From positions 1 to 64,000 of IMG/VR virus record IMGVR_UViG_3300032285_001029: a stretch of 64,000 nucleotides of DNA; one strand, 5' to 3'. The notes under the pieces were generated by a model. It was not told where the DNA came from, did no database searches, and saw only the letters and a program-made list of their open reading frames with translations. The stretch is from a virus. Numbering within the stretch: the first letter of the stretch is position 1; each line of letters opens with the position of its first letter. Below, piece by piece: positions 1,337 to 53,707 of the stretch. The translations under genes were made by a program, and so were the position numbers.

Positions 1337-1537
1337 TCAAATTTTATTGCCATTAAAAAAGGGCTTAATGCCCCATTTAATAGTAGTCCAAGTTCTCTCA
1401 TGTATATAATACGCTACAGTCATCCATATATTAATTACTATAGCACCGCTTAATCCTGTAAAATACGCTGTTACTGCAGTAGCTACAATACGCCAACTGA
1501 TTGATTTTGCTACGGTACGCCAATGTGACTCTGTCAT
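1337..1537 (-). CDS. DUF2061-like small membrane protein
   Basis: ESHWRTVAKSISWRIVAT...YYIHERTW pattern; AGGAG RBS. Confidence 0.75.
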   Translation of the reverse strand: MTESHWRTVAKSISWRIVATAVTAYFTGLSGAIVINIWMTVAYYIHERTWTTIKWGIKPFFNGNKI

Positions 1538-2790: not shown

Positions 2791-3129
2791 TTAGTTCACT
2801 TTAATTTGATGTTGCCCTGCACCGATCTTTAAGGTAGGATGTGCTGTACGCACTAGATAGTTAAACTGTTCAATCTGCGGATTCCAAACCTTAAGTAGTG
2901 CTACGCCCAGGCCTGGATGTTCCAGTATTATGGATTCGTGGTCCTGTATGGCCAGCAGTTCTTTCTTATTGCGCTGACTGGCACGACGAACGATGTGTAT
3001 GACTCTAGCTAGATCAACACCATGTTGTTCCAGTCGTTGTTTTAAATGGTCAGTTAGGACTAGATTTCCGTCGGGAAATACATTGGCCATGTGTTCATAG
3101 CCTTCTAGTATAAATTCAGTGGCTCGCAT
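2791..3129 (-). CDS. Hypothetical protein with MRATEFILE leader
   Basis: 112-aa ORF directly downstream of the kinase gene. Confidence 0.65.
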   Translation of the reverse strand: MRATEFILEGYEHMANVFPDGNLVLTDHLKQRLEQHGVDLARVIHIVRRASQRNKKELLAIQDHESIILEHPGLGVALLKVWNPQIEQFNYLVRTAHPTLKIGAGQHQIKVN

Positions 3130-3136
3130 AGTATGG

Positions 3137-4516
3137 CTAGCCCCGATTCCAAAAATTCACTTCAGCTGATTTATCAGTTGGCGGTTGCAGGGCTTTGGCA
3201 AGTTTATCTTGTGCTAGACGATTCTTTAATGCTGTTCCTAGTCCTGGCTTTTTTGCGGTCTGTTGTGTTTTACTAGCCTGTAGGTCATGCCGGTTTCCGA
3301 ATTGATCATAGCCTTCTGGACCAACTATTTTGATACCTAAATTTGTCAAATAATCTATAATGTTTAAGTATCGGACGCCATGCTGGAAACTTGGTGTTAG
3401 AATTTTCTCTAGTTCCTCATAAGTAACATATCCCTGTCGCTGTGCTAGTTCTTTAACTTGATTAAGTGAATTACGACGATCATCAATCTTGTCGCGATAC
3501 GCATCGGCCCTTGGTTCAGCAGGTGCTTCAGCTGACTGTTGCAATAGTGCATCTGCCTTATGTTTAGCTACGACCTGACTTCTATAATAACTATAACCCT
3601 TGGGTTTAGACCAGCTGTCATTTATCGAAAATTGATCCCATTTAGCCTGCGCATGTTTCTGATTAACAGCTGAAAACGAAGTTAGTAAATGCCAATTGTC
3701 ATCCGAGTCTTTGTACACTACACAGTAGGTGTCAGCTGCTGGTTTTTCTTGTGTTCGCTGAGTACGTTTCTTGTTAGCAACCTTTTTTAAATTAGCATCT
3801 TGATCAGCATGAGGGCCTCGATCAACTTCGTATCTTAAAGGAATACTGCGGCCGCTGTCGCTAACAGGATCTGTAATTACTAACTGTGGGCCTGTACTAG
3901 TTGCACGTATCATAAAGTTACCTGAGTGCATGTCTAAATCATACTTATATTTTCTATACAGTACACCCACATATTTAAGTGCCTGTTTCAGTTGATCATC
4001 TACAATACCGCCGTACTTTTTGGATTCAGCAGCTTCTTTGCAATTATTGCAAATCAGTCTCCATATGTCATATTCCGTGTCGGTGTCGTCGAGCTCGTCA
4101 TAATTCCCAAACATACGTTCATACATGCCGACTAATGCAGCTTTATCAAACTCTCTAAAATTCTTAAGAGCCTGTAAGTGATACTGTGGGCGTGTGCTTT
4201 GATTAGGATCTCGAGTTATTTTGATTTCATACACAGCGGGAAAATAGGGATTTTCTATACCTTTTTTACGTAATGCTGTGATCATTTCAACATACTTGTG
4301 AAATGCATCATTATTTAATTTACTAGTATACTTGGTTGATTTGATAAAAGTATGCGGATCAGTCGGATGAGGAACTCCGCGACTATACCATCCTGCACCT
4401 CCTCTTCGATTATCGGCATTGCCTAATCGATTTAGAGAATCGTAGTTAAAGGCCTGTTGGCGAGTCTTTTCTTTACGTACGGTATCGTATTGTTCAAGTA
4501 TTTCGATAATTTTCAT
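3137..4516 (-). CDS. T7 gp0.7-like Ser/Thr protein kinase with C-terminal sigma70 region 1.1-like domain
   Basis: GAGWYS Gly loop, FIK lysine, YFPAVY, DMHSGN catalytic loop, VITDPVS; aa ~351-399 KELAQRQGYVTYEELEKIL...IIDYLTNLGIKIV resemble RpoD region 1.1. Confidence 0.75.
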   Translation of the reverse strand: MKIIEILEQYDTVRKEKTRQQAFNYDSLNRLGNADNRRGGAGWYSRGVPHPTDPHTFIKSTKYTSKLNNDAFHKYVEMITALRKKGIENPYFPAVYEIKITRDPNQSTRPQYHLQALKNFREFDKAALVGMYERMFGNYDELDDTDTEYDIWRLICNNCKEAAESKKYGGIVDDQLKQALKYVGVLYRKYKYDLDMHSGNFMIRATSTGPQLVITDPVSDSGRSIPLRYEVDRGPHADQDANLKKVANKKRTQRTQEKPAADTYCVVYKDSDDNWHLLTSFSAVNQKHAQAKWDQFSINDSWSKPKGYSYYRSQVVAKHKADALLQQSAEAPAEPRADAYRDKIDDRRNSLNQVKELAQRQGYVTYEELEKILTPSFQHGVRYLNIIDYLTNLGIKIVGPEGYDQFGNRHDLQASKTQQTAKKPGLGTALKNRLAQDKLAKALQPPTDKSAEVNFWNRG

Positions 4517-4522
4517 GTTAGC

Positions 4523-4567
4523 TTACAACCTTGTACGTATATCTATGACGAATTCTCTAGCTCTCAT
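4523..4567 (-). CDS. 14-aa mini-ORF MRAREFVIDIRTRL (gene remnant or leader peptide)
   Basis: ATG 6 nt after TAAATA (4574-4579); stop 6 nt before the kinase ATG; same leader style as neighbours. Confidence 0.4.
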   Translation of the reverse strand: MRAREFVIDIRTRL

Positions 4568-4580
4568 AATATGTATTTAT

Positions 4581-4838
4581 TTACATACCCCAGCGTAGTA
4601 AGCATAAGGTTTTGTACTGTGGTTTCTTAAAGGCCACGGATATTTCATAGTATTTTTGATGCTGACTTTCGGCCCAACACCAAGCTACCCAACGTGGACC
4701 TGTGTAGTCTATAAGCCACAGTTCTAGTTCACTTAGCCCTTCGATCCAATCAATTTGCGCAGTGGATCTAAAATTAGGCCATGGTACACAGGCAATGTAG
4801 CTGAATGAGTGATATTCTGGATAAGCAGATTTTATCAT
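4581..4838 (-). CDS. Hypothetical Trp-rich protein
   Basis: Start moved to MIKSAY because the track's GTG start lies inside a terminator hairpin. Confidence 0.6.
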   Translation of the reverse strand: MIKSAYPEYHSFSYIACVPWPNFRSTAQIDWIEGLSELELWLIDYTGPRWVAWCWAESQHQKYYEISVAFKKPQYKTLCLLRWGM

Positions 4839-4851
4839 AGGATCTTCACAT

Positions 4852-4882
4852 AAAAAAACAGCTGACACCACGTCAGCTGTTT
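4852..4882 (-). terminator. Rho-independent terminator
   Basis: AAACAGCTGAC-5 nt-GTCAGCTGTTT plus T run, immediately after the 4889 stop. Confidence 0.85.
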
Positions 4883-4888
4883 GGTTGA

Positions 4889-7800
4889 TTAGGCCTGAGC
4901 TTCACCCCAACGTAAAACCATGTTAGTAAGAACTGGGCTACCTTGTGTTAGGTAAACATTAATGGCCAATACGTCTGGACCATTAGGGAATGTACCGCGT
5001 CCGCCAATTGGCGTATTAACCAGTTCTTTAAGTGGGCTTAGGTCGATGCTGTCCTTACTGCTAGGGTTACTGACGAATGAGAAAATAGTTTCGCCAGGTA
5101 GTGCATAGGTATTGCGGCTGAATGTTACTGGCGAACCGTAAGGTAAGCTAGTTACAATTGCGTTGTTTAGCGTAATAGAGTTACTGCTTACACTGGTTAC
5201 ACGACTGTTGCCCGATAGACCTGTTGTAGTGGTAAATGTTACGTCATCGCCTAAACGCACACCAGCTACTGTTGGATCGCTTAGTAGAAACATTGTTGTG
5301 GCGCCCGACTGTGGACCTACTGATATAGTTGCGCCACTTAGTGCCTGCGATGGCGCCACGCTGACTGTAAATCCTGTACCGCTACCGTTCAATGCTGTTA
5401 CAGTTGTTAAGGCAACAAATGTTCCAGTTCCAGATGTAACTGATACATAGTCACCTACTTTTAGTGTCAAATAGTTAGATACTGTAATAGTTGTACTACT
5501 GCTACTAGCACCGGTTATAACTAATGATGCACCCGAGTTAATGTTTAAACTAGCAGCGCCTTCCCATGTAACGCTGGATCCTGCAGCAACTTGACTAAAG
5601 CTAGGCTGTCCACCAGCAAAGTAGGTATAACTAAAACTCTGTAGCGTATTCCAAGTAATATTGTTTACATTAGTCGGATAGTTCTGCGGATTTAACACAC
5701 CTTCAATAACCAGTGCTGAGTTTGAGTTAGTTGTACCGCCTGCAGTAATTTCTAATCCCTGTAACAGTAGTTGCGCACGATTTAGTAGTTCACGTACACC
5801 TAAGTCTCCTACAATAGCGTTTGATACACTAGGTGCTAGTCGAATTGCAAAAGCAGTTGTTTTTCTTGTACTGACTGAAACGTTGGTACTTTGATAGTTA
5901 AAGATGTAGCCGCGATCTGTATCAAATCCGCCGTCAGTCATAAATGCTGAACCCCAATGGCTAACTACAGGAGTAGCTGTTTGATTAATTAAAATTACAC
6001 CCGTGCCCACTGGCATCGTAGCTGCAGTACCTCCACTATATGTTCTAGTAGATCCTGCAGCAAACTGCGAGAATGTACTAGCTCTAGTACAGCCTGTAAA
6101 TGTAGTAGGAGTCTTTCCAGTATAGTTGACAATTTCACCGTCAGCCCATAGTGTACCAGTGCTAGGGAAAAATGTAGTATCTGCTACAGTTAATGTAGTA
6201 TCTATACTAGCAGCCTGTGTAGTTATAGCAGTCTTAGGACCTTCGTTGATAACTTCATATCTAACTGGTTGGTTACCTGAACGCATATAAGCTTCTGTAT
6301 TTACGTTAGCTGCTTTAACACGATGTACAGTAATATAATTACCTTCGGGTCCGCGCAACATCCAATCTATAAAGCCTGCACCGTACCAAGTCCATTGTAT
6401 ACCCACCATCTGCATTTTGTTTGGTAATAGTCCATAACCGCTGGGATTGTAAACACTATTAGTACCGTCGCAACGATCTATGTTCCACTGATTTTGCGGT
6501 GTAATAAATTCTTTAACTTTTACACATTTTACACCTGTCAGGTTTGTGCTGCCTCTGAAGTCCGGTGTGACATATAGTTGGGTATCACTTGTTACACTAC
6601 TAACTAAGTGTGTCATACCTTTGATAACAATCCTATCACCTTCGCTTAATTGTCCAAGGAAACGTGTATTAGTTCCTGTAACAGTATTACTATCAGCATT
6701 AATGGCAATAGTACCTGCAACTTGGAATGTTGAGCTGCGATAACCTACTGCTACAGTCTGTCCATCATATTGCCAAAACTGACCGTTTTGATCGTCGAAT
6801 GTACCTGCACGTACAGTTGCTCCGGCCCAGTTGACTAAACTGACTAAGCAAGGAGTGCCAATGGCAGCGTTAACATCCGCTAAAACACTTTTTGCTAATA
6901 CAGTAAATTGACGTTCATCTACAATGCTGTTTACTGTATAGGTATCATTATAACCGCTAGTAGTAACACCAGTGATAGTAACTACTGCACCCGCTTGCAG
7001 ACCATGATCAACATCGTCTGTAGCTACTGTGATAGTCGATCCAATTGCAGTGCCAGTAGCAGTTAAACTACGCAAATCATAGTTGGGTGCCATTAACAGA
7101 CCTGTGTTGTAGTTAATAGCTTTACCTGACTGATAACGAATATATTTTTTACTTTGACGTATGGCCTGTGCACCATGTGCTGGACCGCCTGTACCTAGCT
7201 GTACGCCGCCGTCAAATGGTCTGTGAACATAAAAACAGTCAGGTCTTGTATATACTGTACCCTGTACAAGATATGGATTATAGTTAATTGTAGCAGCAGA
7301 TAATCCAACAGTTGGAAATTGATTTACTGTAAACTGTGTACCATTTACATTTACGCTAGTTACAGTTGTGTTGGCAGCAAACGATCCTGTTCCTGCACTA
7401 ACAGTCACTTGACTACCTACCGTTAATCCTGTTGTACTAAAAACAGTGATTGTTAAACTGTTTGTAAAACCACTGCCACTGGTCAATGTTCCTGCACTAC
7501 CTACTAGAATTGTACCTGGTGCTCTTGCTGTATATGTCAGTGTTGTCGGTGTAGGTACACTTTCAACGAAGTAAGGACCTTGCGCAAGACTATGACTATT
7601 AACTCCGTTATCCGATGTTATATTAACTAAGATAGTATCGGCAGGTATCAGTCCGTGTGGACTGGCAAATGTTGCTGTAATTACTGGTGTAGCAGCACCG
7701 GTGTAAGTAAATGTAGTAGTCCCAATTGTGGAACCTGTATAAAATCCGCCTTTTCTTAATTGCGTATATGTTGTACTTAATACATCACCGTTACTTGTCC

Positions 7801-8509
7801 CTACTTTAGCTTTTGCATAGTAAGTAAATGTAGTTGTTGTGGGCACGGTGTTGATAATAAATGTACCTTCTGCACGGCTAAATCCGCTAATAGTATTTAG
7901 ATAACCTTTAATTGTTACCGGAGTGCCGGTAGAAAATCCGTGCGCACTTACTGTAGTAACAGTGATTAAACTAGCGCCACTTCCGCCTGTTCCCGTTGAT
8001 GCATCTGTTGTAACTGAAGTAACTGGTGTATCTGTACCTGGGATTTCGTATACACTAGGATAGTTACGCATCAAGTCAAGCACTTGCCATTTAGTTGGCT
8101 GTAGTCCGTATTCAAAGTCAGCGTCTAGCATACTTTGTGGATTAGCAACACGAGTACGTTCAAACGCATCTGTACCTACATTGGCTAATCTGACTTGTTG
8201 GATAGGATTATCATAAAATATCTGTAGTGTGTCACCGGATAAATGTGTATTAGTACTTACAGCCAGCGTAATTGTAGTATACCCGTCACTGTTACTAGTT
8301 GCGGTAGGAAATGCGGTACTATTAGCCCTTGTAAACGTGCAAGCGGTATTTGCATACGTTGTGTCAGCAAAGTTGTATATGATAATATTTCTAGTTACGT
8401 TAGTGATTAGCAGTAGTTGACTCAAATCAACTTTTCCAGGTACTACAATAGTCCCAGAGCCAGCATTACCTGGTGTGTACACATACGTTCTAATCTGCGA
8501 TTTTGACAT
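4889..8509 (-). CDS. Large virion structural / tail-fibre-associated protein
   Basis: 1206 aa, Thr/Gly/Ser-rich; repeated TVTT..AHG...G..V.I beta modules; LLLITNVT..IIYNF N-terminus; DADFEYGLQPTKW motif. Confidence 0.7.
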   Translation of the reverse strand: MSKSQIRTYVYTPGNAGSGTIVVPGKVDLSQLLLITNVTRNIIIYNFADTTYANTACTFTRANSTAFPTATSNSDGYTTITLAVSTNTHLSGDTLQIFYDNPIQQVRLANVGTDAFERTRVANPQSMLDADFEYGLQPTKWQVLDLMRNYPSVYEIPGTDTPVTSVTTDASTGTGGSGASLITVTTVSAHGFSTGTPVTIKGYLNTISGFSRAEGTFIINTVPTTTTFTYYAKAKVGTSNGDVLSTTYTQLRKGGFYTGSTIGTTTFTYTGAATPVITATFASPHGLIPADTILVNITSDNGVNSHSLAQGPYFVESVPTPTTLTYTARAPGTILVGSAGTLTSGSGFTNSLTITVFSTTGLTVGSQVTVSAGTGSFAANTTVTSVNVNGTQFTVNQFPTVGLSAATINYNPYLVQGTVYTRPDCFYVHRPFDGGVQLGTGGPAHGAQAIRQSKKYIRYQSGKAINYNTGLLMAPNYDLRSLTATGTAIGSTITVATDDVDHGLQAGAVVTITGVTTSGYNDTYTVNSIVDERQFTVLAKSVLADVNAAIGTPCLVSLVNWAGATVRAGTFDDQNGQFWQYDGQTVAVGYRSSTFQVAGTIAINADSNTVTGTNTRFLGQLSEGDRIVIKGMTHLVSSVTSDTQLYVTPDFRGSTNLTGVKCVKVKEFITPQNQWNIDRCDGTNSVYNPSGYGLLPNKMQMVGIQWTWYGAGFIDWMLRGPEGNYITVHRVKAANVNTEAYMRSGNQPVRYEVINEGPKTAITTQAASIDTTLTVADTTFFPSTGTLWADGEIVNYTGKTPTTFTGCTRASTFSQFAAGSTRTYSGGTAATMPVGTGVILINQTATPVVSHWGSAFMTDGGFDTDRGYIFNYQSTNVSVSTRKTTAFAIRLAPSVSNAIVGDLGVRELLNRAQLLLQGLEITAGGTTNSNSALVIEGVLNPQNYPTNVNNITWNTLQSFSYTYFAGGQPSFSQVAAGSSVTWEGAASLNINSGASLVITGASSSSTTITVSNYLTLKVGDYVSVTSGTGTFVALTTVTALNGSGTGFTVSVAPSQALSGATISVGPQSGATTMFLLSDPTVAGVRLGDDVTFTTTTGLSGNSRVTSVSSNSITLNNAIVTSLPYGSPVTFSRNTYALPGETIFSFVSNPSSKDSIDLSPLKELVNTPIGGRGTFPNGPDVLAINVYLTQGSPVLTNMVLRWGEAQA

Positions 8510-8525
8510 TTTATTTCCTATTTCT

Positions 8526-9704
8526 TTATGTTAGGGCAACAGCAACACCAATAGCTAGTGCAGAAATCAAATTTCGTATTCCCACACCATTGACACTTAA
8601 ATTAGTAAATCCTGCGGTAGTAGCAGTTACGGTAGTGGCACCTAAAGTAGTAAAGATACCTGTACTAGGAGTTACACTGCCAATTGCTATGTTATCAATA
8701 GCACCGGATCCATAACTTAACGATCCTGCTACCAATGTTCCTGATACGTATAAATTCTGGCCAATCCATGCACCGCCAGTAACTTGAAGTGCTCCTGTGC
8801 TAGTACCTGATGATACTGTACTACTAGTTATTTTTACATCGCCACCGACATTTAATTTTTTACCTATACCAACACCACCGGCAGTAACAACAGCACCGCT
8901 TCCAGTATTTGTAGAGTCGGTAGTGTTAATAACAGATAGTGTTGTGAATCGTCCACTCAGAGGAGTAGATACTCCAATAGTCATGTTATCTATACTACCT
9001 GTAGTAGTTGGATTAACTGTTACGGTTCCAGTAGGTGATAAACTTACACTGATTGTTGCAGTTAAATTGGTAAACGAGCCTGCGGCTGGTAATATACTAC
9101 CTATTGCAGCCGGGCTGGCTAGATAATTTGAAAATCCTGTTCCTGATACTGTTCCGCTTGCACTTAGGTTAGTTAGCGTAGCAGAACCAGTTAATGATCC
9201 TGTAAATGAACTTGCTATCACAGCGCCAGTTACAGTAAGACTTGTTAGTGTTCCTACGCTAGTTAAACTGGAACTAACAACATTACTTGCTAGACTAGTT
9301 CCTGTTAATCCGGAAGCACTACCGGCATGTGTATCCACATACGTTTTAATTGCATACTGTGTTGGTACAATATGAGAACTATTACTAGCTAATGTAGTAT
9401 CATTATCGAATGCCGTAACTGAAGGCCCTGAACTAAATGCCAGGCTACTAATAGATGTAAGAGAACCGCTTGATAAGTTGCCAGTTACATTTCCAGTTAC
9501 ATTACCTGTTAAATTTCCTGCAAATGTACCTACAACAGTTGCAGCATTTACTGCTGTAGCATTGACTGTAGTAGCATTGACTGTAGTAAAAGTAGGGCTT
9601 GCAATTGGGACCAAATCCCAAGTCGTTCCAGTCCAAACCCATGTGGATCCATCGGCAGTATAGGTATCGTTTGTATCAGGATTTGTTGGAAATATGATTG
9701 CCAT
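8526..9704 (-). CDS. Tail fibre protein
   Basis: FPTNP...W.W.G..W N-terminus, GNVTGN repeats, VPTQYAIKTYVD, GALQVTGG; hydrophobic C-terminus; TAAATA at 9725-9730. Confidence 0.7.
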   Translation of the reverse strand: MAIIFPTNPDTNDTYTADGSTWVWTGTTWDLVPIASPTFTTVNATTVNATAVNAATVVGTFAGNLTGNVTGNVTGNLSSGSLTSISSLAFSSGPSVTAFDNDTTLASNSSHIVPTQYAIKTYVDTHAGSASGLTGTSLASNVVSSSLTSVGTLTSLTVTGAVIASSFTGSLTGSATLTNLSASGTVSGTGFSNYLASPAAIGSILPAAGSFTNLTATISVSLSPTGTVTVNPTTTGSIDNMTIGVSTPLSGRFTTLSVINTTDSTNTGSGAVVTAGGVGIGKKLNVGGDVKITSSTVSSGTSTGALQVTGGAWIGQNLYVSGTLVAGSLSYGSGAIDNIAIGSVTPSTGIFTTLGATTVTATTAGFTNLSVNGVGIRNLISALAIGVAVALT

Positions 9705-9740
9705 TGTATTCTCTTATAACTTAATATTTATTGATATTTA

Positions 9741-11780
9741 TTACCAGGTGATAGACCCTGACCCACTTGTAAATTTGTAGACTCTATACCCAGGTCTAGT
9801 AACACCGTTATCGTAAGTATAACTAACACCTGAAATAGATCTTAATGCTGGATATGCAGTTAGATATGCAATAATTACGACACCATTGCCTCCCTTCCCA
9901 CCATTACTTGTTGATCCGCTACCAGATGGTCCACTATATCCGCCACCACCTCCACTACCAGTTCCATCTGTAGCCGCACCACCTGTAGTGTTGCCGTTTC
10001 CAGTGCCAGCACCATATGGACTATAACTATCGGCAGTAGGATAAGAACCACCTGCGGCAGTATTTCCTTGACCATCGCCACCACCGCCACCACCACCTGC
10101 ATAAGCAGTGGTTACACCTGTAATAGTTGAAGTAATGCCGATTCCGCCTTTACCTGGCTGACTTTGACTTGGTATACTTTCACCTATAGATCCAGCACCA
10201 CCGCCACCACCACCTGATGCTCTTCCGCCTCCTGCGCCACCGCCACCAGAACCGCCGTTATAACCTTGTCTTGGTGGCCCTGCAGTACCAGAGCCGCCGC
10301 CTGTAAAGTTTGGACCTGCGCCACCACCTCCAGAACCTCCAGGTTGTCCACTTGGTCCTGAATCGGCCTGCCCTCCACGACCGCCGCCAATAGCAGTAAA
10401 TGATCCCAATGTGCTATTATTCCCACTTGTATTACTGCCACCGCCAGTACCAATACTAACAGACAACGAACCTCCGTATGCTAATGCATATGGCCCAGAT
10501 ACACTGCTTGAAAGTACACCTCCGGCACCACCACCGCCACCGATAAAGCTCGAGCCTCCACCTCCACCACCTACAACAAGATATTCTAAGTAAACTTGTG
10601 TGTCAGCCGCTAACGTACCAGTTCCAGCAGCACTTGATCCACCTGCATTATCGGTCGTAACATAGATTGTATATGCTGTTAATGGATCTAGATTAGAAAT
10701 AGTTGCTGGCAGTGATGCAGGGTATGATACATTAGTTGTTACAGTTGTAGGAGAAGTCGTTATAGTATATCCTGTTGCAGTCGGACCTAAATTGAGTCCA
10801 TCGGTCCAACTAACAAATGCTGTCGTTCCTGCAGTCAATCCGGATGTATTTCTAATTACACTAATGCCAGTCGGAGGGTTAGGTACAGTAATTGGATTGA
10901 CTGTATTACTAGTGCCTGGCGATCCAGGTCCGCCAGCATTTACAGCTTTTACTGTAAAATAGTAACTGTTTGAAGGTGTAAGGCCATTTATTGTTACGGG
11001 TAGCGATAATCCTGATACAGATACCGATTGAGATATCAATGCTGGCACACTAGTAATAGTATACGAAGTTATTGGAGATACTGGTGTTGGTGGAGTCCAT
11101 GTGAGTGTAGCAGATGCGCCGGTTATTCTTACAGCAGACACACTAGTTGGTGCATTCGGAACTACTGTTAATCCCATAGAATTGCTGACACCTGCAGAAC
11201 TCGTTCCTATGCCATTAGTAGCTGTGATAGAAAATGTGTATGCAGTCGATGTTGACAGCCCTATAAGCGCAATTGGTTGCGATAGTAAACTTGCATAAGT
11301 GAAATAATTTATACCTGCAGGTGAACTAGTAACAGCATAGGAGGTAATTGTTGCTCCTCCGTTAAATGGCAAATCGAATGTTATAATACATGATGTTCCG
11401 TCACCAGTTCTTCCTGCAACTACGTTAGTTGGCGCACTTGGTACTGTTACAACACCTACAGTATTACTAGTTGCATACACTCCTGTACCGGCTACATTAG
11501 TAGCGGTGACTTGAAATGTGTAAGGTACTGTTGCTAATATTCCAACAATGGATATTGGCGATGTTGTGCCACTGTTAGTATATCCTCCAGGAACAGATGT
11601 AACTGTGTATGATGTAATAGGTAAATTACCGTTATCTACCGGAGGAGAAAATGATACATCAGCAGTAATACCTGTTGCACCTGTTCTGGCCGCTGATACA
11701 CTAGTAGGCGCACCTGGAACGGACGGAATAACGCTGTTAATTGATAATGTTCTTCCAGATAGTGTAGATAATACAGGCAT
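9741..11780 (-). CDS. Fibronectin type III repeat + glycine-rich domain virion protein
   Basis: Four VP.APT.V...ITSY.VTS.P...Y.F.V.A.N..G FN3 units, then EYLVVGGGGGG...GGNGVVIIAY glycine-rich domain. Confidence 0.85.
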   Translation of the reverse strand: MPVLSTLSGRTLSINSVIPSVPGAPTSVSAARTGATGITADVSFSPPVDNGNLPITSYTVTSVPGGYTNSGTTSPISIVGILATVPYTFQVTATNVAGTGVYATSNTVGVVTVPSAPTNVVAGRTGDGTSCIITFDLPFNGGATITSYAVTSSPAGINYFTYASLLSQPIALIGLSTSTAYTFSITATNGIGTSSAGVSNSMGLTVVPNAPTSVSAVRITGASATLTWTPPTPVSPITSYTITSVPALISQSVSVSGLSLPVTINGLTPSNSYYFTVKAVNAGGPGSPGTSNTVNPITVPNPPTGISVIRNTSGLTAGTTAFVSWTDGLNLGPTATGYTITTSPTTVTTNVSYPASLPATISNLDPLTAYTIYVTTDNAGGSSAAGTGTLAADTQVYLEYLVVGGGGGGSSFIGGGGGAGGVLSSSVSGPYALAYGGSLSVSIGTGGGSNTSGNNSTLGSFTAIGGGRGGQADSGPSGQPGGSGGGGAGPNFTGGGSGTAGPPRQGYNGGSGGGGAGGGRASGGGGGGAGSIGESIPSQSQPGKGGIGITSTITGVTTAYAGGGGGGGDGQGNTAAGGSYPTADSYSPYGAGTGNGNTTGGAATDGTGSGGGGGYSGPSGSGSTSNGGKGGNGVVIIAYLTAYPALRSISGVSYTYDNGVTRPGYRVYKFTSGSGSITW

Positions 11781-32318: not shown

Positions 32319-32795
32319 TTATTTCATATTCTTTAATTTTTCAAGTAGACTGTTGCGATCTGACACAACAAATCCTTCACCATTTACAGTAATACCCTTG
32401 TCCTCTGTAACAGCATCTTGATCTAACTTTTGCTTTTTAAGCTGTAAATCGATCATTTTTAGCTTTTTATCGATTTTAGCTGACTTTGCATCTATAGCAT
32501 TTTTTAACATTGCACCAGCTACTTCAAAGATTCGAGCACTATATCTTGCTTCTACATTCATACCTAAATCAATTAAATCGTCGTATGCATTCGTAGCTCG
32601 CAGGGCTAGTTCATCAAATTCAGCATCTGCTAGATCTCCTAGTCCTTTTACTTGCGGTAAACTGGCTGAAATTTTATCAAATTCTGCCATGTCTCTAAGA
32701 AAGGGTTCGGGTTTAGAAGGAGCAGAAGCCTTTTCTTCTGATTTAATAATTTTTTTACTTTCAGGTAAATTGAGTAATTCTTCAAGTTTTTTCAT
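32319..32795 (-). CDS. terS: Probable terminase small subunit (T4 gp16-like)
   Basis: Helical; ARIFEVAGAMLKN resembles the gp16 PR..EV...L motif; C-terminal FV.S....L...LK; TAAGTA upstream. Confidence 0.6.
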   Translation of the reverse strand: MKKLEELLNLPESKKIIKSEEKASAPSKPEPFLRDMAEFDKISASLPQVKGLGDLADAEFDELALRATNAYDDLIDLGMNVEARYSARIFEVAGAMLKNAIDAKSAKIDKKLKMIDLQLKKQKLDQDAVTEDKGITVNGEGFVVSDRNSLLEKLKNMK

Positions 32796-44949: not shown

Positions 44950-47900
44950 TTATGCAGTTGGAAATAATGTTCTTGGCAATGCAGGTCTATCTGTGCCAAT
45001 GTGTGTCATAACTGCAAGGCTAACTGACTGTGTAGTTCCAGTTATAGAAGTTAAGTTAGCTTGACTACCAGTTGCAATGGCTGCTGCACCAACAGACGCG
45101 GATACAGTCATCGAATATCCATCTAGTGTTTTAATATAGTAAGTAGTACCGCCTCCTACACTACCAAATCCGCCGCTAAAACTAATAGGCTGATTTGGAT
45201 GCAATCTTGTTAGATCACCAGTAAAATAAATTATATAAGTGTCTGAACTTACTAGTGTAATGGTATAAGGATCAAACTGTACCGCTCTAGTTTCATATCG
45301 CGGAAACATTGTAAATCTAAAATCGTGTAAATGTCCGGTCCAACCAGTAACTACAGATTGTGTATAATCTGCCCCTATTGTAAAGTCAGCAGTAGCATAA
45401 TCTAAATCTCCATTTTCAGTAGTTGGGCCTTGTCCGCCTGGATAAGTTCCAGTTCTAGTAGTTGGAAATGCATTGACATATATACCATTAATAAACCAGT
45501 AGAATATACCACCTTTACGCATCATACAAATGTAATCCATAGCTTTGCTAGTAACTGTACTGACTAGATATGTGCTAGGATTATAGTCAAAATATCCTTG
45601 AGTATTAGTGCTAGCTAATCCTGTACCGCCACCAGAAGCTTGCCTAAATCTCCAGTAACCTGTGGGATTAATCTGTGCTGCCATGTTGTTTGCATAGAGC
45701 CAAAGCACATTACCTACGGAAGCATTAATAGCACGACCTCCTGCTGTAGTGTCCATATGATTAACCCAACATTCGACAGTAAAATCTTGATATCGTGTAT
45801 CTGGCCTGAATGCTTGATATTCTTGAGCTGTGAATATTATGTAGTCGGTCTGAACAGTAGTATCATAATTCATAAATGTCATAGTAGAATTAGCACCATA
45901 TCGCTTGGTTCTGTAGTTAGGTCTGCCAGCAGAGCCATAACTATAGTGCGGCCATCTATGACATGCATCGGCAAATGGAAAATGATGATTAACTAACTGT
46001 ACACTATACTGATCATAAGCCCAAAAAGCGGTAGGAATTGTATATGTTGTAGAATCATTATTATATCTAGCTATATTGCTTATTCGGGCTGGGCCTGTTC
46101 TGCTGTCACTGGCAAGTCGATACGTCTGCCAAGTCTTCTGCCCAGGTGTTAGTGTTGTTGCAGTAGCAACTCTGTATCCATTAATAAACATGGCTATCTT
46201 ATTAGTCCTAGTTGGATCCCACACTACAGCTATATGATTGAAGCAATGACTCTTCCAATAGCTAGTCGCATATCCTGTAGTATAAATTCTTTGAACACCG
46301 CTGTTATGTGCAGTCCAAAATTCAAATGTAACATCATTCCAACTATTGCTAGCATTACTACGATCTCTGATAATCCTAAATCCTTCGTGACCTGCTGATG
46401 TAGCTGTATATAAGATTTGAATAGTTTCTGTCGGACTAGCAGGATTACTTATACTAGACCATATCCACATTTCCGCAGTCCATGCGCTGCTCAGTCTAGT
46501 TATAAAACTAAGTTCGTGATATACGCTGTCATTTTGTACAGGACCTGTACTATACCATTCAGAACCGCTGCTAGTAGACCCGTATGCATGTGCATTATAG
46601 TCAAATGGAATGCCACTGTATGGACTCCAAGACTGTATATATGGATTCCAAGCACTGGTGAAATTACCATCAGTTCGTCCGCCTGTATCTATATAATTAT
46701 TAGCAGGACTAGCGTCTCTATAGGTCGGATATTGGGCTGACCATAAACAAACAGTACTAGATGTAACTGGTAAAAATGTTGTAGGTACTTGAAAATATTC
46801 TGGATTAGATGAGCTAGTTCCCGGTCCAGACGCAGTATAAGAACCGTATGCTGCGGTTGTCTTACATACTCTAAAATCGCAGAAAGCGCCATTAAATCGT
46901 CTGCTATAGTCTGTACCTGAGTATTGATCGTTGCCTATGACAATTCTACTATTTTGTGGAGCAGCAAGACTTGCAGTAAATACAACTTCGCTACGCTTAC
47001 GACCATTTACATAGAACGCTAGCATTCCATTGACTCGTTGTAGACAAATGTGTGTCCATACAAAGTGTCGAAGTAATGTGTAATTGTCGAGCAATATTAT
47101 TCTACCAGCATACCAAACTTCAAGTTTACCTTGATAGTTCTGTCTAATAGCAAATTGAGTATCTGTATAGCCAGATCTTAAAGACAGTAGATAATTATAT
47201 GTGGTTGTAAAATATTGAAATTCGTTGAAATTTCTATTGTAACACCAAAATTCCATACTAAAATCGCCAGTACCGAATGTAAAGTTAGTGCCGCTATCAA
47301 CAATACTAATTTTATCTTGACTACTATCTCTATACATAAGTCCACTATGACCGTGGCGATGTGTAGGAGAACCTATTCCGGTACGCAATTCATTGTTTGC
47401 ACGACGTGGAAATACATATCGTGTAGTTCCATAATCGATAAGATAATCAAAAATTCCAGCTGGTAAAGTTGCACCGTTATTGGCAGTAGTTCCAAACATC
47501 ATCCAAGTGTTTGCATCTACGGTCATACTAGTATCTAAGAATGTAACAGCACCACTACTAGGTTCTACAGTTGTACCAAATGGAGTACCTGGCGTATATC
47601 TTGCTGTTCCAGAAACTCTAAGCCCTGCATAATACATGTAAGAGTTAAACTGTGCATTTCTGCTGTTAAGAATGATAGCGTAATCTGTGTTGTTATAGTT
47701 AGTGCTTACTGTACCGGTATATGCAACTGCACCATTTACCCACATACCAAATCCGCTGGCTAGTGTGTTAACTCTGGCAGCTGCCACATGATACCAAGCA
47801 CCTTGTGTCATTGAATTATTAGGGCTTGAGTTAAGACTGGCGTTAACATCCGACCAGCGTAAATATCCGCTGCTATCAATCCAAAAACTCCAACCAGTAC

Positions 47901-49143
47901 CAGATGTATCATTACCAGTACCCTTGCCCATAATTCCACGATTGCTACCGTCATTGACAATCAGATAAACCCAACATTCAACTGTAAATTGACCTGTGCC
48001 GAACTGTAGATTTCTTGCCGGATTAACATCATATACTCTATAATATGGATTACCTTCTTGATGGGGAGCTAAACTATAAGCACCATTACCAGTTAATTTT
48101 GCAGTATTGACTAGGAACGGACTATCAATGATTCGACGAATATACGTTCCGCCTCTTGTAATGGTCAATCCCTGTAATTGATTAGTTACTATAGTATCAT
48201 GATGCGGTTTCAACATGCTTATGCATAATACCGTACCTGTTAATGTCTGACTTAGTGCGGCGGTCGGTGCTGTGAATATACTAGCGCCAACAGTTACACT
48301 AGCTGTTGAATATACTGCAGTATTATTGATTCTAATATCAGTTAGTAATCCCCAGAAACCAGTGGCTGCAGTTCGATCAGCACCTATATATAATGTTTCT
48401 GTTGAAGTATAGTTACCTGAACTTGTACCTACGCCATCTAATACACCATTAATAAAGATACGAAGACCGTTAGTAGCGGTGCTACTACGAACGATAGCTA
48501 CGTGATACCATGTGTCTCTAGATAATGCAGTCGCACCCGTAGTAGTTGTATTGCCTTGTGCATCGTAGTAAAACATGAAATAACCGGAAGTTAGCCCAAT
48601 TACCCATCCATTACCAGAAGTTACGCCTGCTTGATTGCCTTTACCCATAACATAGTGTTGGGTAGCATCTTGTCGCAATCCTTTGTACCAAAATTCTATC
48701 GTGAAATTGCTAGTACCTAGGCGTAAGTTTGCAGTATCAGTTACGTTATAATAGTCGCCTTCATGAAATTTACTAGCCCAGTCTCTGTAGCGTGGACCAA
48801 AATATGTTGTACTTGGATTACGATTATTTGCTTGGGTTGCTAGATATACATCCCAGAAGTTACCTGACTGATCATGTAGTAAACTAGAGTTATACTGTGA
48901 ATCAGTTAAATGAACTAACGTCATGTTTATATACGGGTCTGTTAAACCTGTAGTCTTAGGATCCGTAACACCGCCTACTCTGTTCCACTGTGGTCTAGGA
49001 ACCTCGTATCCGTTAGTTGTATACGATACTTCTGCATCTAGTTTTGACAACATGACGTCGTCGCTGGTATATACGCCACTTCGACTGTAGCTTCTTTGAG
49101 CTAATCTTTTACCAACAACTCCACCGTTTCTTCTTGTACGCAT
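44950..49143 (-). CDS. LamG / concanavalin-A-like repeat protein, copy 2 (putative receptor binding)
   Basis: About five FT.E.W...W.H.A..R......F.NG...G...D.R units. Confidence 0.85.
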   Translation of the reverse strand: MRTRRNGGVVGKRLAQRSYSRSGVYTSDDVMLSKLDAEVSYTTNGYEVPRPQWNRVGGVTDPKTTGLTDPYINMTLVHLTDSQYNSSLLHDQSGNFWDVYLATQANNRNPSTTYFGPRYRDWASKFHEGDYYNVTDTANLRLGTSNFTIEFWYKGLRQDATQHYVMGKGNQAGVTSGNGWVIGLTSGYFMFYYDAQGNTTTTGATALSRDTWYHVAIVRSSTATNGLRIFINGVLDGVGTSSGNYTSTETLYIGADRTAATGFWGLLTDIRINNTAVYSTASVTVGASIFTAPTAALSQTLTGTVLCISMLKPHHDTIVTNQLQGLTITRGGTYIRRIIDSPFLVNTAKLTGNGAYSLAPHQEGNPYYRVYDVNPARNLQFGTGQFTVECWVYLIVNDGSNRGIMGKGTGNDTSGTGWSFWIDSSGYLRWSDVNASLNSSPNNSMTQGAWYHVAAARVNTLASGFGMWVNGAVAYTGTVSTNYNNTDYAIILNSRNAQFNSYMYYAGLRVSGTARYTPGTPFGTTVEPSSGAVTFLDTSMTVDANTWMMFGTTANNGATLPAGIFDYLIDYGTTRYVFPRRANNELRTGIGSPTHRHGHSGLMYRDSSQDKISIVDSGTNFTFGTGDFSMEFWCYNRNFNEFQYFTTTYNYLLSLRSGYTDTQFAIRQNYQGKLEVWYAGRIILLDNYTLLRHFVWTHICLQRVNGMLAFYVNGRKRSEVVFTASLAAPQNSRIVIGNDQYSGTDYSRRFNGAFCDFRVCKTTAAYGSYTASGPGTSSSNPEYFQVPTTFLPVTSSTVCLWSAQYPTYRDASPANNYIDTGGRTDGNFTSAWNPYIQSWSPYSGIPFDYNAHAYGSTSSGSEWYSTGPVQNDSVYHELSFITRLSSAWTAEMWIWSSISNPASPTETIQILYTATSAGHEGFRIIRDRSNASNSWNDVTFEFWTAHNSGVQRIYTTGYATSYWKSHCFNHIAVVWDPTRTNKIAMFINGYRVATATTLTPGQKTWQTYRLASDSRTGPARISNIARYNNDSTTYTIPTAFWAYDQYSVQLVNHHFPFADACHRWPHYSYGSAGRPNYRTKRYGANSTMTFMNYDTTVQTDYIIFTAQEYQAFRPDTRYQDFTVECWVNHMDTTAGGRAINASVGNVLWLYANNMAAQINPTGYWRFRQASGGGTGLASTNTQGYFDYNPSTYLVSTVTSKAMDYICMMRKGGIFYWFINGIYVNAFPTTRTGTYPGGQGPTTENGDLDYATADFTIGADYTQSVVTGWTGHLHDFRFTMFPRYETRAVQFDPYTITLVSSDTYIIYFTGDLTRLHPNQPISFSGGFGSVGGGTTYYIKTLDGYSMTVSASVGAAAIATGSQANLTSITGTTQSVSLAVMTHIGTDRPALPRTLFPTA

Positions 49144-49558: not shown

Positions 49559-52500
49559 TTAGTAACTTGGGAACAACGCGGTAGGTAATGCAAAGGTATC
49601 TGTTTGTGCATGACACATTGCACTTACTGTTTTATCTTGTGTTGTTGCTACAATCGATTGACCAGTAGTTGTACCTACCTGTACTGGAACTCCGCCTATA
49701 GTTGTAGCCACAGTTAAATTATTATCAAACACATTAGTTATGTAATATGTTGTACTACTTACAATATTACCAAAGTTACTAGCAAAAGTAACAGGTTGAG
49801 TCATTACACACAGATTATTCAAACTAGTAGTTGTTGTTATAATTGCACCACTACTGCTTGACACAGTAAATGTGATAGGAGTAAATCGCTTGGCTCTAGT
49901 TTCATAACGTGCAATTGCACTTACACGGAAATCTTGTATAAATCCTGCCCAGCTAATACCACTTTGACTGTAAGTATCATGAGCAATGTTTATAGTAGTA
50001 GTTCCTGGACTGCTGACATAGTCTGGATGACCTTGATCACCAGTTGTCTGCATACCTGTTCCGAACATGATAAATGCTTCAATACCATTGATATAAAAAT
50101 ACCATTCGCCGCCTCGACGCATTAGTACTAAATGATCAAATGTTCCACTAGTAGTAGTACTTGCATAGTATGTGCTAGGATTGTAATCATATCCAGTACT
50201 ATATGCAGAGTTACCGCTAAATGTTCCATTAGCTGGGTTAGTAGAGTTGCCGTTTAAAAATCTCCAATAGCCGCTGCTGTTAATCATAACAATAAGATTG
50301 TTACTATATTGCCACAATGCTCGACCTTGAGCACCGGTACCAGGTCCGCCAGCTGTGCTGTCCCAGTACATAGCCCAGCATTCCATAGTACAGTCGTTAA
50401 TGCGGAAGTCCATTAAATAATTGTATTGACCCCAGTGCTGTGCTAAAATGCGTTCGCATAATAGGGAAGGATTCTTTTGGCCAAATTTCATACTAGCATT
50501 GCCAAATCGCTTGTATTTGTAACTTGGAAGTACTCCATATTGCATTACACCAACTGCTGCACCTGCTTTGTTAGCAAAAGGTTCATCTACATCAATCAAT
50601 GAATAGGTATACTGATCGTAAGCCCATCGTGTAGTTGGCATTGTATAAGTGCCTGAATCGTTATTATATCGCGCAGTTGTACTAATACGTACTGGGCCTG
50701 TGCCTTGACCAGAGTGCTGCAGTCTGTAGGTATTCCACATTTTTTGCCCTTGTGTAAATGTACCACTAGTAGCAACACGGTATCCGTTAACGAATATAGC
50801 TAGCTTAGAACCTTTAGTATTATCCCAACATACAGCAATATGCCACCATGCATAGCCACTAGCGATATTACGCAGATAGTTACTGCTTGAATACATTCTC
50901 TGAACACCACTATTGTGAGCAGTCCACCATTCAAATGTAATATCACAATAGCTAGCACTGGTATTCGATTGATGAACTATGATACGCCACCCTTCGTGGC
51001 CGCCTGACGTAGCCGTATATAACGAGGCATAGTTATTACCTGGGCCTGGTGCACCAATCTGTGTCATATACACCCAGTGCCAGCATTCAATAGTCCATGG
51101 ATTATGATTAGTTAATCGCGTTATCCAGCTGTAATCGGGGTATGTACTATCACCACGCACTGGACCGTATGCATCCATTCCTCGAGCTGTATCTACAGCC
51201 TGTCCAAACATCTGCTTTGTTCTGTCCCAGTCTTGTATGCCTTGATATGGGCCATAAGAAACTGAGTAAATTTCAAAACTGTATGGGTTAGCTGGATCAT
51301 TAGGTCCACCTGGTTCTACACGTTGTTGTTGACCTGAAGCATCATAAAATCCGGAGTTTAATGCACTTATTAATAATGTACAATTACTGACAGCAGTTAA
51401 CGGATTTCTAGGAACTTCTATATAGTTAGGATTATAGTTGCCGGATGCATATGGTGCAGAACCGTTAACTACCCGAATATCGGAAAATCCGGTAGTTGCT
51501 CCACTGTCAGTTCTATGATTAGAACTATAACAGTTACCAATATAGAATCTACCAGACGGGCAAGTGATAGTTGTTGTATAAATGGTCTCTGCTCGTTTAC
51601 GACCGTTGACATAAATTGCTAGATTACCGTTTACTCGTTGAACAAGAATGTGATTCCAAATATTTGAACCGGAAAAATCTTCCCAAGTTGCTATAATAAT
51701 ATTATTGTTTCCGTGCAGTTCATAACTTTTACGAAAACTTCTTCTTAACCATAAGCCTGCATCACTATAAGCGGCCTGTGTACACCAAAGTGTTCTAAAT
51801 GTAGTATTATCCTGATCTAACCAGTGTGGCATGATCCACATTTCTACGCTAAAGTTATTAGTACTGAATGCAAAATTTGAACCATTCTGTGTAACTACTA
51901 ACTTAGTATTAGTATCTCTGTTTGGAAATGCACTGTGGCCCGTTCTACTGTAAGGATTGTAATTAGTTATAATCTCGCTACTATGTCTTACTGGGGCACA
52001 CCCCGACTGACCTGCATCTCGATAGTGCGATCCTCCATTGGCTGGATCTTGCGTACCAGTTGTTCCGATAAGATAGACGGTATTGGCATCTACAGCCATG
52101 CTACTGTCTTTAAATGTGGACAATTCAACGTTATATGGCGATCCGGAACCGCTGTAGCGACCAGTGTTACTAAGTCTTAAACCGCAAATATATCCATTCC
52201 AGTTAGAGTACTGATTATTTCTGCTATTGCCGATAACCATTGTCTCAGTTCCGGAATAGTCAGTGCTGACTGTACCTTGATAAGTTAAGTTACCATTAAC
52301 ATAAATGTAAAACTGATTAGCGGCAGTACCTACTCTACTAGCAGCAATGTGATACCACCCACCGAATCTAATAGGATTATTAGGGCTGCAATTAATTGCC
52401 TGCGAGGCATCGTCCCAACGAACATATCCGCTACTATCGACCCATAGACTCCACCCACTACCGCTGCTAGTATTACCACTACCTTTTCCAATAATTCCGT

Positions 52501-53707
52501 TATTCTGTCCCTGTTGCAATGAGCTAGTTGATCCGTACACCCAACATTCAACCGTAAATCCGCCAGTACCAAATCGTAAACTAGTATTACCAGTCTGTAC
52601 ATCCCATACCTGCATATAGGCATCTACGTTCCAGAAATTTAAGCTGTGTGCGCCGTTGCCGGTTAATAAAGTTGTTTGATTACTAACGATAGGTGTGGCA
52701 GTTCTGTCTACATACAAGAAAGGACCGTCACGATATCTGAACACATTATTGTTAGTAACAACAGTTCTATTGCCGCCTGCGTTGAATGGAATATCGTCGT
52801 GATGCGGTTTCCCACCACTTTGATAAAATACTGTGTTTGCATCTGAACCAATTGGTCCGCTTGGCATACTAACAGTGCCAGCTACACCTGTTCTAATTCT
52901 AAGATCGTATATACGTCCTTGGAAAGACACTGTAGCACCAGTTGCTGCTGATCGATCTACGCCAACATATAATGGGTTAGTATCTGCAAAGTTTTGACCC
53001 GAAGTACCGGTAATATAGTTTGCACCGCTAGTGACATTATTGCCACAATACAGTGTAGTGCCCGATCGATAAATGTGAATAAAATACCAACGATCACGTT
53101 CTAAAACGGTACCGTTAGTAGTTGTGCTTCCAGTACCGTTAGCATCAAAAAAGAATAGTTGATAAGACGTATTAATACCAATAACCCAACCGGTATTATT
53201 ACCTGCTGTTACGCCAGTACCGGATCCTTTGCCCATAACGTAATACTGATTAGCATCTTGTTTACGTAGTTTGATCCAAAAAGAAATGTCGAAGTTACCA
53301 CTGCCAAAGCGTAAGGCAGCTGCATCACTTACAGTGTAGTAACCATTTTCATAAAAATCACTACACCAGTCAGTATACCGTGGACCAAAATGTGTTGCAA
53401 TCGGCGCTCGTTGATAAGCATTGATCGTTGTATAAGTGTCCCAGTTATTACCAGACTGATCTTTTATTAAATGATTTGCAACATCCGAATCCTGTAGATG
53501 AACTCTAACAGTATTATAATAAGGATCTGTATTTCTAGCCTGAGGCCACGTCATTGGTGGAGTATACTTATGAAATGCATCAACGATCGAGCCTTCATCA
53601 AGTTTACTGCCGACTACATCATCTAGGTTATTAGTTCCAGATCTATTATAGTTCTTAAGATTTAATTTACGTCCAATCAGGCCGCTATTTCTTCTAGTTC
53701 TTGACAT
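49559..53707 (-). CDS. LamG / concanavalin-A-like repeat protein, copy 1 (putative receptor binding)
   Basis: Same repeat architecture; colinear paralog of 44950..49143. Confidence 0.85.
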   Translation of the reverse strand: MSRTRRNSGLIGRKLNLKNYNRSGTNNLDDVVGSKLDEGSIVDAFHKYTPPMTWPQARNTDPYYNTVRVHLQDSDVANHLIKDQSGNNWDTYTTINAYQRAPIATHFGPRYTDWCSDFYENGYYTVSDAAALRFGSGNFDISFWIKLRKQDANQYYVMGKGSGTGVTAGNNTGWVIGINTSYQLFFFDANGTGSTTTNGTVLERDRWYFIHIYRSGTTLYCGNNVTSGANYITGTSGQNFADTNPLYVGVDRSAATGATVSFQGRIYDLRIRTGVAGTVSMPSGPIGSDANTVFYQSGGKPHHDDIPFNAGGNRTVVTNNNVFRYRDGPFLYVDRTATPIVSNQTTLLTGNGAHSLNFWNVDAYMQVWDVQTGNTSLRFGTGGFTVECWVYGSTSSLQQGQNNGIIGKGSGNTSSGSGWSLWVDSSGYVRWDDASQAINCSPNNPIRFGGWYHIAASRVGTAANQFYIYVNGNLTYQGTVSTDYSGTETMVIGNSRNNQYSNWNGYICGLRLSNTGRYSGSGSPYNVELSTFKDSSMAVDANTVYLIGTTGTQDPANGGSHYRDAGQSGCAPVRHSSEIITNYNPYSRTGHSAFPNRDTNTKLVVTQNGSNFAFSTNNFSVEMWIMPHWLDQDNTTFRTLWCTQAAYSDAGLWLRRSFRKSYELHGNNNIIIATWEDFSGSNIWNHILVQRVNGNLAIYVNGRKRAETIYTTTITCPSGRFYIGNCYSSNHRTDSGATTGFSDIRVVNGSAPYASGNYNPNYIEVPRNPLTAVSNCTLLISALNSGFYDASGQQQRVEPGGPNDPANPYSFEIYSVSYGPYQGIQDWDRTKQMFGQAVDTARGMDAYGPVRGDSTYPDYSWITRLTNHNPWTIECWHWVYMTQIGAPGPGNNYASLYTATSGGHEGWRIIVHQSNTSASYCDITFEWWTAHNSGVQRMYSSSNYLRNIASGYAWWHIAVCWDNTKGSKLAIFVNGYRVATSGTFTQGQKMWNTYRLQHSGQGTGPVRISTTARYNNDSGTYTMPTTRWAYDQYTYSLIDVDEPFANKAGAAVGVMQYGVLPSYKYKRFGNASMKFGQKNPSLLCERILAQHWGQYNYLMDFRINDCTMECWAMYWDSTAGGPGTGAQGRALWQYSNNLIVMINSSGYWRFLNGNSTNPANGTFSGNSAYSTGYDYNPSTYYASTTTSGTFDHLVLMRRGGEWYFYINGIEAFIMFGTGMQTTGDQGHPDYVSSPGTTTINIAHDTYSQSGISWAGFIQDFRVSAIARYETRAKRFTPITFTVSSSSGAIITTTTSLNNLCVMTQPVTFASNFGNIVSSTTYYITNVFDNNLTVATTIGGVPVQVGTTTGQSIVATTQDKTVSAMCHAQTDTFALPTALFPSY

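Follow-up and report, generated by a model that had tools for sequence, protein, structure and literature searches.

We analysed a window of 64 kb (64,000 nucleotides), the initial part of a 141,855-bp viral contig (IMG/VR record IMGVR_UViG_3300032285_001029) that is judged 38% complete. At positions 3137-4516, the minus strand carries an intact open reading frame (ORF) of 459 amino acids (aa), as given by the ORF list and its translation. An earlier note had proposed that this gene encodes a kinase like gp0.7 of phage T7 (hereafter T7K) fused to a mimic of sigma70 region 1.1, and that the product might be packaged in the virion. Our analysis identified a T7K-type kinase into which a domain that is very probably homologous to sigma region 1.1 has been inserted. 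The same ORF, 100% identical, is present in a 161-kb ENA scaffold and in a Logan contig, and its occurrence in these two other assemblies (both probably from the same sample) argues against an assembly chimera.

The kinase motifs lie where the earlier note had placed them (GAGWYS, aa 40-45; FIK, 57-59; DMHSGN, 195-200; ITDPVS, 214-219), and the strings that it gave for T7 gp0.7 are correct (GNGHFS, VIK, DMHSGN and ITDPVS in the T7 protein). When a profile of 82 family members was aligned with T7 gp0.7 by hhalign, the match had a probability of 93% (E 3.5e-7, 154 columns) and paired aa 33-224 with T7K residues 67-221. Within this alignment GAGWYS was paired with GNGHFS, FIK with VIK, NPYFPAVY with RPGIPNVY, and DMHSGN and ITDPVS with the identical strings of T7K. 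The catalytic residues D195 and N200 fell on T7K D195-N200, and D216-P217-V218 on T7K D213-P214-V215; DPV is the T7K family's substitute for DFG (PMC13645617). In agreement, PHROG 15752, the T7 gp0.7 kinase family, matched at aa 189-221 (E 6.5e-5) and was also matched by 48 of the 82 aligned family members (best 9.4e-13), and the precomputed annotation of the protein is PF27024, which is Phage_T7_kinase in Pfam 38.1. Across the 82-sequence alignment N89, P93, N200, R204, V213, D216 and P217 were invariant and G42, K59 and D195 near-invariant. An AlphaFold2 model had a mean predicted local distance difference test score (pLDDT) of 84.9, exceeding 90 across aa 11-225, with a predicted template-modelling score (pTM) of 0.61 for the whole protein. 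Searches with the kinase region of this model, by Foldseek and by an independent VIA search (aa 4-230), returned only protein and small-molecule kinases of the protein-kinase-like fold. We therefore take the assignment to the T7 gp0.7-type kinases, with an intact active site, to be settled, and infer an active Ser/Thr(/Tyr) protein kinase.

The family to which this kinase belongs is large and mostly short. An exhaustive search recovered 753 representatives at E <= 0.001; with few exceptions these are 200-250 aa long and match aa 1-225 only, and members of the T7K-like family sit on viral contigs, many of 280-400 kb. Among phage records, a tblastn search found only two Stenotrophomonas jumbo phages, with 22.6% identity over the kinase half. 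A search of PDB sequences with the family profile was uninformative, returning only designed helical proteins and a weak match to CDKL3. Pfam found no recognisable accessory domains in the C-terminal extensions of 16 longer family members. The shut-off domain of T7K (residues 243-359), compared with the family alignment, gave an hhalign probability of 0.1%, i.e. no relation to the C-terminal half.

Beyond the kinase, the earlier note had matched aa 351-399 (nt 3320-3466) to RpoD region 1.1, and profile, pairwise sequence comparison and predicted structure all agree with this match. The Pfam model Sigma70_r1_1 (PF03979) scored 23.6 bits (E 4.9e-5; aa 348-402 against profile positions 4-58), which is 1.1 bits over its gathering threshold of 22.5 bits, and three control genomes from archaea likewise gave matches to this profile at E <= 1; in a six-frame search of the DNA the domain score was 26.8 bits. 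NCBIfam RpoD models matched weakly, through the models' N-terminal parts. Among PDB sequences, the best match to the fragment was region 1.1 of Thermotoga maritima sigmaA (2k6x; E 0.0047), and a full-length RpoD was also matched at residues 7-57. BLASTP of the fragment against residues 2-64 of E. coli sigma70 gave 29% identity (pair E 6e-6). The hallmark pattern QGY[VIL]TYxE[VIL] ... [IL]Ixx[IL]xxxGIx[IV] is present, and the match to the region 1.1 family is co-linear over ~60 residues.

Structure prediction agreed with the sequence profiles. Because no homologue carries the segment, its prediction amounted to folding a lone sequence, yet it reached a pLDDT of 70-90. In a structural search independent of Foldseek, against 48,161 PDB representative chains, the top match to the whole-protein model was domain 1.1 of Bacillus subtilis sigmaA (5mww; Z 6.8). 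A second model, of the C-terminal 204 residues, again placed 5mww first (Z 7.2; next chain 5.6), and the 5mww alignment covered 71 of 76 residues with a root-mean-square deviation of 4.7. By language-model features, all 30 of the nearest ESM Atlas clusters carried PF03979, and the ESM Atlas model compared with the N-termini of RpoD/SigA clusters at template-modelling scores of 0.6-0.8. ESM Atlas also contains clusters made up of stand-alone hypothetical proteins of only 51-85 aa, with Sigma70_r1_1 in 40-93% of the members of a cluster; two of these clusters have no recorded taxon. Free-standing region-1.1-like proteins may thus exist. The resemblance of the segment to sigma region 1.1 is greater than chance, since sequence profiles, the language-model search and two structure predictions agree, and homology is very probable.

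The domain differs from its canonical counterparts in position and charge. It is internal to the kinase protein rather than N-terminal to sigma regions 1.2-4, and Pfam found no other sigma regions in the protein. The earlier note had called the segment less acidic than RpoD, and correctly so: its net charge is 0 (pI 6.8), whereas in E. coli sigma70 residues 1-56 carry -8 (pI 4.05) and residues 1-80 carry -18. As both the canonical position in a sigma factor and the acidity are absent, it is properly named a sigma-1.1-like domain and not a sigma region. The domain resembles region 1.1 of group 1 sigma factors (PF03979; 2k6x, 5mww) in its sequence pattern and length, and also in its predicted fold and the order of its secondary-structure elements, but a basic stretch follows it here in place of the acidic linker of sigma.

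The sigma-1.1-like domain is an insertion, because the closest kinases with the same gene order lack it. The four closest kinases (P0002-P0005, ~50% identity) match the protein over aa 1-333 and again in a short C-terminal tail, and have no sequence between these two parts. Two of the four lie in the same gene order, i.e. a large structural protein (55-62% identity), an 83-85-aa ORF (66-67%) and then the kinase. Searches with the segment alone found just its own protein among 5.8 billion clustered proteins, nothing in IMG/VR and only insignificant matches among phage records. In addition, literature and phage-genome searches found no such fusion, as the earlier note had supposed for described phages. 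By these searches, the sigma-1.1 insertion is a singleton, seen in one phage only. Its GC content (0.39) and GC content at third codon positions (GC3, 0.29) are the same as in the remainder of the gene, so its acquisition was not recent or the donor was of similar composition. Recent capture from a host rpoD is not supported, with this composition and no close donor sequence.

The remaining parts of the protein are a basic linker, a middle domain shared with the closest kinases and a mostly low-confidence tail, and by charge calculation the whole protein is basic (pI 9.2). For the middle domain (aa 259-333) the best structural match was PaaB, which at Z 4.2-5.0 is not convincing, and Foldseek on the C-terminal model found nothing under E 0.18. 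Coordinates of the domains and of the features around the gene are collected in the table.

Table. Domains of the kinase gene, features around it and two related genes elsewhere on the contig (positions in the window unless marked as outside it).
Feature	Position	Strand	Remarks
Whole gene	3137..4516	-	T7K-type kinase with inserted sigma-1.1-like domain; stop codon 3137-3139
Kinase domain, aa 1-225	3842..4516	-	Gly loop G42, Lys K59, catalytic D195-N200, DPV 216-218
Basic linker, aa 226-258	3743..3841	-	Net charge +4, pI 10; helical in model
Middle domain, aa 259-333	3518..3742	-	Beta-beta-alpha-beta-alpha; common to closest kinases
Sigma70 region 1.1-like domain, aa 339-402	3311..3502	-	Pfam, PDB/RpoD sequence matches, 5mww, ESM Atlas
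C-terminal tail, aa 403-459	3140..3310	-	Basic, net charge +5; mostly low-confidence
112-aa ORF downstream of kinase	2791..3129	-	In common with kinase: N-terminal leader only (MRATEFILE)
14-codon upstream mini-ORF (MRAREFVID...)	4523..4567	-	Ends 6 nt ahead of kinase ATG
T4-late-type promoter-like core, GTAAATAAATA	4574..4584	-	Second TAAATA starts 12 nt before mini-ORF ATG
Conserved 85-aa ORF	4581..4838	-	Between structural gene and kinase; 66-67% identity to 83-aa ORFs of L003 and L005
Intrinsic terminator	4856..4882	-	After 1206-aa structural gene; 12-bp stem, then T-run
1206-aa virion structural protein	4889-8509	-	PHROG 5838, E 1.7e-267
gp21-family prohead protease (Peptidase_S77, PF03420)	G000:C1:82391-82828, outside window		87.3 bits
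T4 gp55-like late sigma, 279-aa ORF	G000:C1:93900-94960 (L044:1384-2223), outside window	-	37% identity over 77 residues, E 1.2e-6

The surroundings of the gene are those of a large T4-like myovirus, and the phage is a PA5oct-like jumbo myovirus. The window encodes tail-fibre-like proteins, a DnaB helicase and a primase near the kinase, and the contig has a T4-type terminase, a tail-sheath protein and a gp15-like sheath stabiliser. The terminase shares 56% identity with those of the Pseudomonas jumbo phage PA5oct and its relatives, which makes PA5oct the nearest cultured relative by this gene. A nucleotide search with the locus found no match among 50,697 phage records.

Several further features of the locus were observed alongside the kinase. 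The 1206-aa structural protein aligns with its 2092-aa counterpart in relatives (L003:679-6957) in three blocks of 56-62% identity, which means that large internal stretches are absent here or were acquired in the relatives. Gene calling in the ENA and Logan records overlooked the 85-aa ORF. One related phage has a radical SAM/SPASM gene (L005:7104-7976) between this small ORF and the kinase, so the junction is a variable site for accessory genes. Profile searches found no family match for the 112-aa ORF downstream; as a fragment of the kinase it was ruled out, because only its initial 10 residues match kinase N-termini. Elsewhere in the window, two proteins of ~1390 aa with triple Laminin_G_3 (concanavalin-like lectin) domains (44950-49143 and 49559-53707, minus strand) and an ORF of >2870 aa that extends past the window end (55276-63999, minus strand) are probably giant fibre or adhesin proteins. 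A DUF6492 protein lies on the opposite, plus strand (1693-2490; 23.5 bits, barely over the cut-off), and a small DUF2061 membrane protein (1337-1537, minus strand) is conserved beside the kinase locus in L003.

The earlier note had placed the gene under a late promoter, and as a motif this holds: GTAAATAAATA lies upstream, TAAATA is enriched between genes on the sense strand, and a gp55-like factor is encoded. TAAATA is the commonest hexamer of upstream regions in the window; under a permissive gene call, 14 of its 56 occurrences fell in the 2.6% of bases that are intergenic, and 12 of those 14 were on the sense strand. Both syntenic relatives (L003 and L005) likewise have the hexamer a short distance upstream of the kinase, and in L003 a 5-codon counterpart (MRAQE) of the mini-ORF overlaps the kinase ATG. 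Fifteen of 21 distinct IMG/VR homologues have TAAATA within 60 nt (<=60 nt) before the start, compared with 5% of background windows, and its placement in these homologues (loci L009-L039) is mostly -10 to -13 from the ATG. Such a distance, only 10-13 nt, would imply near-leaderless late transcripts. The T4 late-promoter octamer TATAAATA showed no enrichment across the window, with 5 occurrences where 10.9 were expected, and neither did GTAAATA overall; only the hexamer, on the intergenic sense strand, stood out. A scan for sigma-70-type promoters detected none in the interval from the upstream ORF to the start of the kinase. A T4-type late promoter ahead of the kinase is a reasonable reading of the motif, which we treat as a candidate.

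In phage T4, the ADP-ribosyltransferase Alt and the internal proteins IPI-III are packaged via an N-terminal capsid-targeting sequence, cleaved by gp21 and injected, and Alt modifies the host RNA polymerase (RNAP). The N-terminus of the kinase, MKIIEILE, resembles the capsid-targeting sequence of T4 IPII/IPIII (MKTYQEFIAE, as read from the T4 record) and includes an (I/L)xE site; the role of the T4 sequence is described in PMC9026906. The contig encodes a gp21-family prohead protease, and several non-homologous late ORFs begin with a portable decapeptide, M-[KR]-x-x-E-[FI]-[ILV]-x-E, namely the kinase, the 112-aa ORF, the 14-codon stub and a 386-aa ORF. The last of these (G000:C1:90142, minus strand) encodes a protein that is not a kinase, with the leader and with TAAATA 28 nt upstream. 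The leader occurs on 4 of the 275 contig ORFs, i.e. besides the kinase and the 112-aa ORF only at window position 32795 and contig position 90142. In L005, two ORFs after the kinase (9089-9373 and 9437-9910) are headed MRAYEFIPE and MRFYEIND. The likeness to Alt and IPI-III would extend from a candidate RNAP-modifying enzyme to the leader, the gp21-family protease, the gp55-like sigma and the late-type motif; the modification would be phosphorylation in place of ADP-ribosylation.

Two observations argue against packaging. A leader-like start was present in 64% of 153 collected proteins, 152 of which are kinase-family proteins from homology searches, and T7K, which is not packaged, starts with MNITDIM and partly echoes the leader. 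Conservation of the leader could instead reflect a cassette of promoter and start codon maintained at the nucleotide level. We regard packaging of the kinase in the virion, suggested by its leader, as a lead that is less likely than not to hold. The complete scenario is improbable as it stands: a kinase made late would be packed in the head via the T4-like leader and injected, its sigma-1.1 mimic would enter the DNA channel of host RNAP in competition with sigma70 region 1.1, and within seconds of infection the kinase would phosphorylate RNAP together with the factors bound to it. If it were true, this protein would be a kinase counterpart of T4 Alt, addressed to its target by a fragment stolen from sigma.

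The phage probably uses host RNAP for transcription, because PA5oct relies on host RNAP (PMC7318152) and because a gp55-like gene is encoded with no Sigma70_r2 in the contig. RNA polymerase was not detected in a few searches of the 38% of the genome that is represented. After the gp55-like ORF come a gp47-like gene (metallophosphoesterase) and a gp46-like gene (ATPase), an order that resembles that of T4. As a hyperpromiscuous kinase of dual specificity, T7K phosphorylates RNAP among very many targets, and its C-terminal shut-off domain binds DNA, which biases it to nucleic-acid-bound proteins (PMC13645617). Homologues of T7K in jumbo phages of ~300-400 kb have lost the shut-off domain, and their role is unexplained (PMC13645617). 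By analogy, and on the reading that we favour as the simplest, the sigma-1.1-like module would be a targeting domain, or address label, for a promiscuous kinase. It would take the kinase to host RNAP, at the usual site of sigma region 1.1 or nearby, so that RNAP subunits and bound factors would become preferred substrates and host transcription would be remodelled or shut off. We consider it quite possible, though short of probable, that the inserted domain concentrates the kinase on RNAP in this way; both the binding and the effect on transcription are argued from T7K and from sigma.

Several points weigh against targeting to RNAP. Canonical region 1.1 is an acidic DNA mimic that is tethered and held by the rest of sigma. 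The domain here is neutral, with the +5 tail after it and the +4 linker further upstream, before the middle domain. With net charge 0 and basic flanks, the domain is unlikely to act in the canonical way as an electrostatic mimic of DNA in the RNAP cleft, which is positively charged, and a neutral, untethered copy of region 1.1 may not sit in the RNAP channel. In isolation, region 1.1 is not known to have an affinity of its own for core polymerase. As a singleton, the protein offers no conservation or covariation behind a functional interface; only one sequence, from one population of uncultured phage, represents it. The structural likeness itself must be read with care, since Z scores of 6.8-7.2 can be reached by small helical domains through a common arrangement. 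This last point feeds the explanation to which we give least credence, namely that the resemblance to region 1.1 is convergent or due to chance and that the segment is a generic spacer of three helices, unconnected with transcription, in a family of kinases with freely varying C-terminal extensions. In its favour are the Pfam margin of only 1.1 bits, the archaeal control matches to PF03979, a Z of ~7 for a helical domain of 70 residues and the C-terminal extensions of other family members, which have no recognisable domain. However, four kinds of evidence converge on one family, co-linear over ~60 residues with the hallmark pattern included, and 5mww ranked first in both models with 71 of 76 residues covered.

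If the domain is homologous to region 1.1, it might still act elsewhere than on RNAP. Although we think it unlikely, the fold could have been repurposed as a general targeting or adaptor module that works close to nucleic acid; with the basic linker and tail it would replace the DNA-binding shut-off domain of T7K, and the kinase would favour DNA- or RNA-bound proteins generally, including defence systems, and not RNAP specifically. The basic character of the protein (pI 9.2; linker +4, tail +5, domain neutral) is consistent with this, and the fold also resembles winged-helix-like modules (Roco COR, Z 5.6-6.0; RecX; the winged-helix domain of MCM8). In contrast, the sequence match is specific to sigma 1.1 and not to DNA-binding helix-turn-helix families, and we know of no DNA binding by region 1.1. 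The closest relatives, moreover, have the basic linker without the inserted domain, so the insertion should add something else. Alternatively, the inserted domain could bind another partner of region 1.1, for instance host sigma70 in its free form or the gp55-like factor that the phage encodes, or it could regulate the kinase itself as an intramolecular lid. Region 1.1 is the auto-inhibitory module of free sigma70, the gp55-like sigma of the phage lacks region 1.1, and the domain arrangement is not fixed by a model with a whole-protein pTM of just 0.61, all of which would accommodate such a role. On the other hand, it is debated whether region 1.1 touches other sigma domains directly, and we hold this explanation to be improbable.

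The kinase core is homologous to that of T7 gp0.7, with the same Gly loop, VIK/FIK lysine, DMHSGN loop and DPV, and in both proteins the kinase is joined to a C-terminal accessory region. The accessory regions differ: the shut-off/DNA-binding domain is absent here, and another middle domain and the sigma-1.1 insertion are present. T7K is also an early gene, whereas this kinase ends a structural-gene block behind a late-type TAAATA motif in the genome of a jumbo myovirus. The T7K-like kinases of jumbo phages likewise have no shut-off domain, and for the divergent C-termini of T7K homologues 'no alternative domains' were found (PMC13645617). None of them has been reported with a sigma-1.1 domain, and the segment was in no other family member searched. 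Leaving aside the short stand-alone Sigma70_r1_1 clusters of ESM Atlas, whose origin is not recorded, this would be, as far as our searches reach, the first phage protein other than a sigma factor with a sigma-1.1 domain. By analogy with the known systems, we hypothesise that the protein would work in the manner of T7K, but with another targeting domain in exchange, and perhaps, should it be packaged, in the manner of T4 Alt. The usefulness of T7K depends on a C-terminal domain that biases its targets, and here is a natural variant in which a domain of known address is found. The fusion therefore allows us to ask whether swapping the accessory domain redirects such kinases, and whether region 1.1 finds RNAP alone. 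If the domain does bind, it would be a compact handle for directing enzymes to bacterial RNAP.

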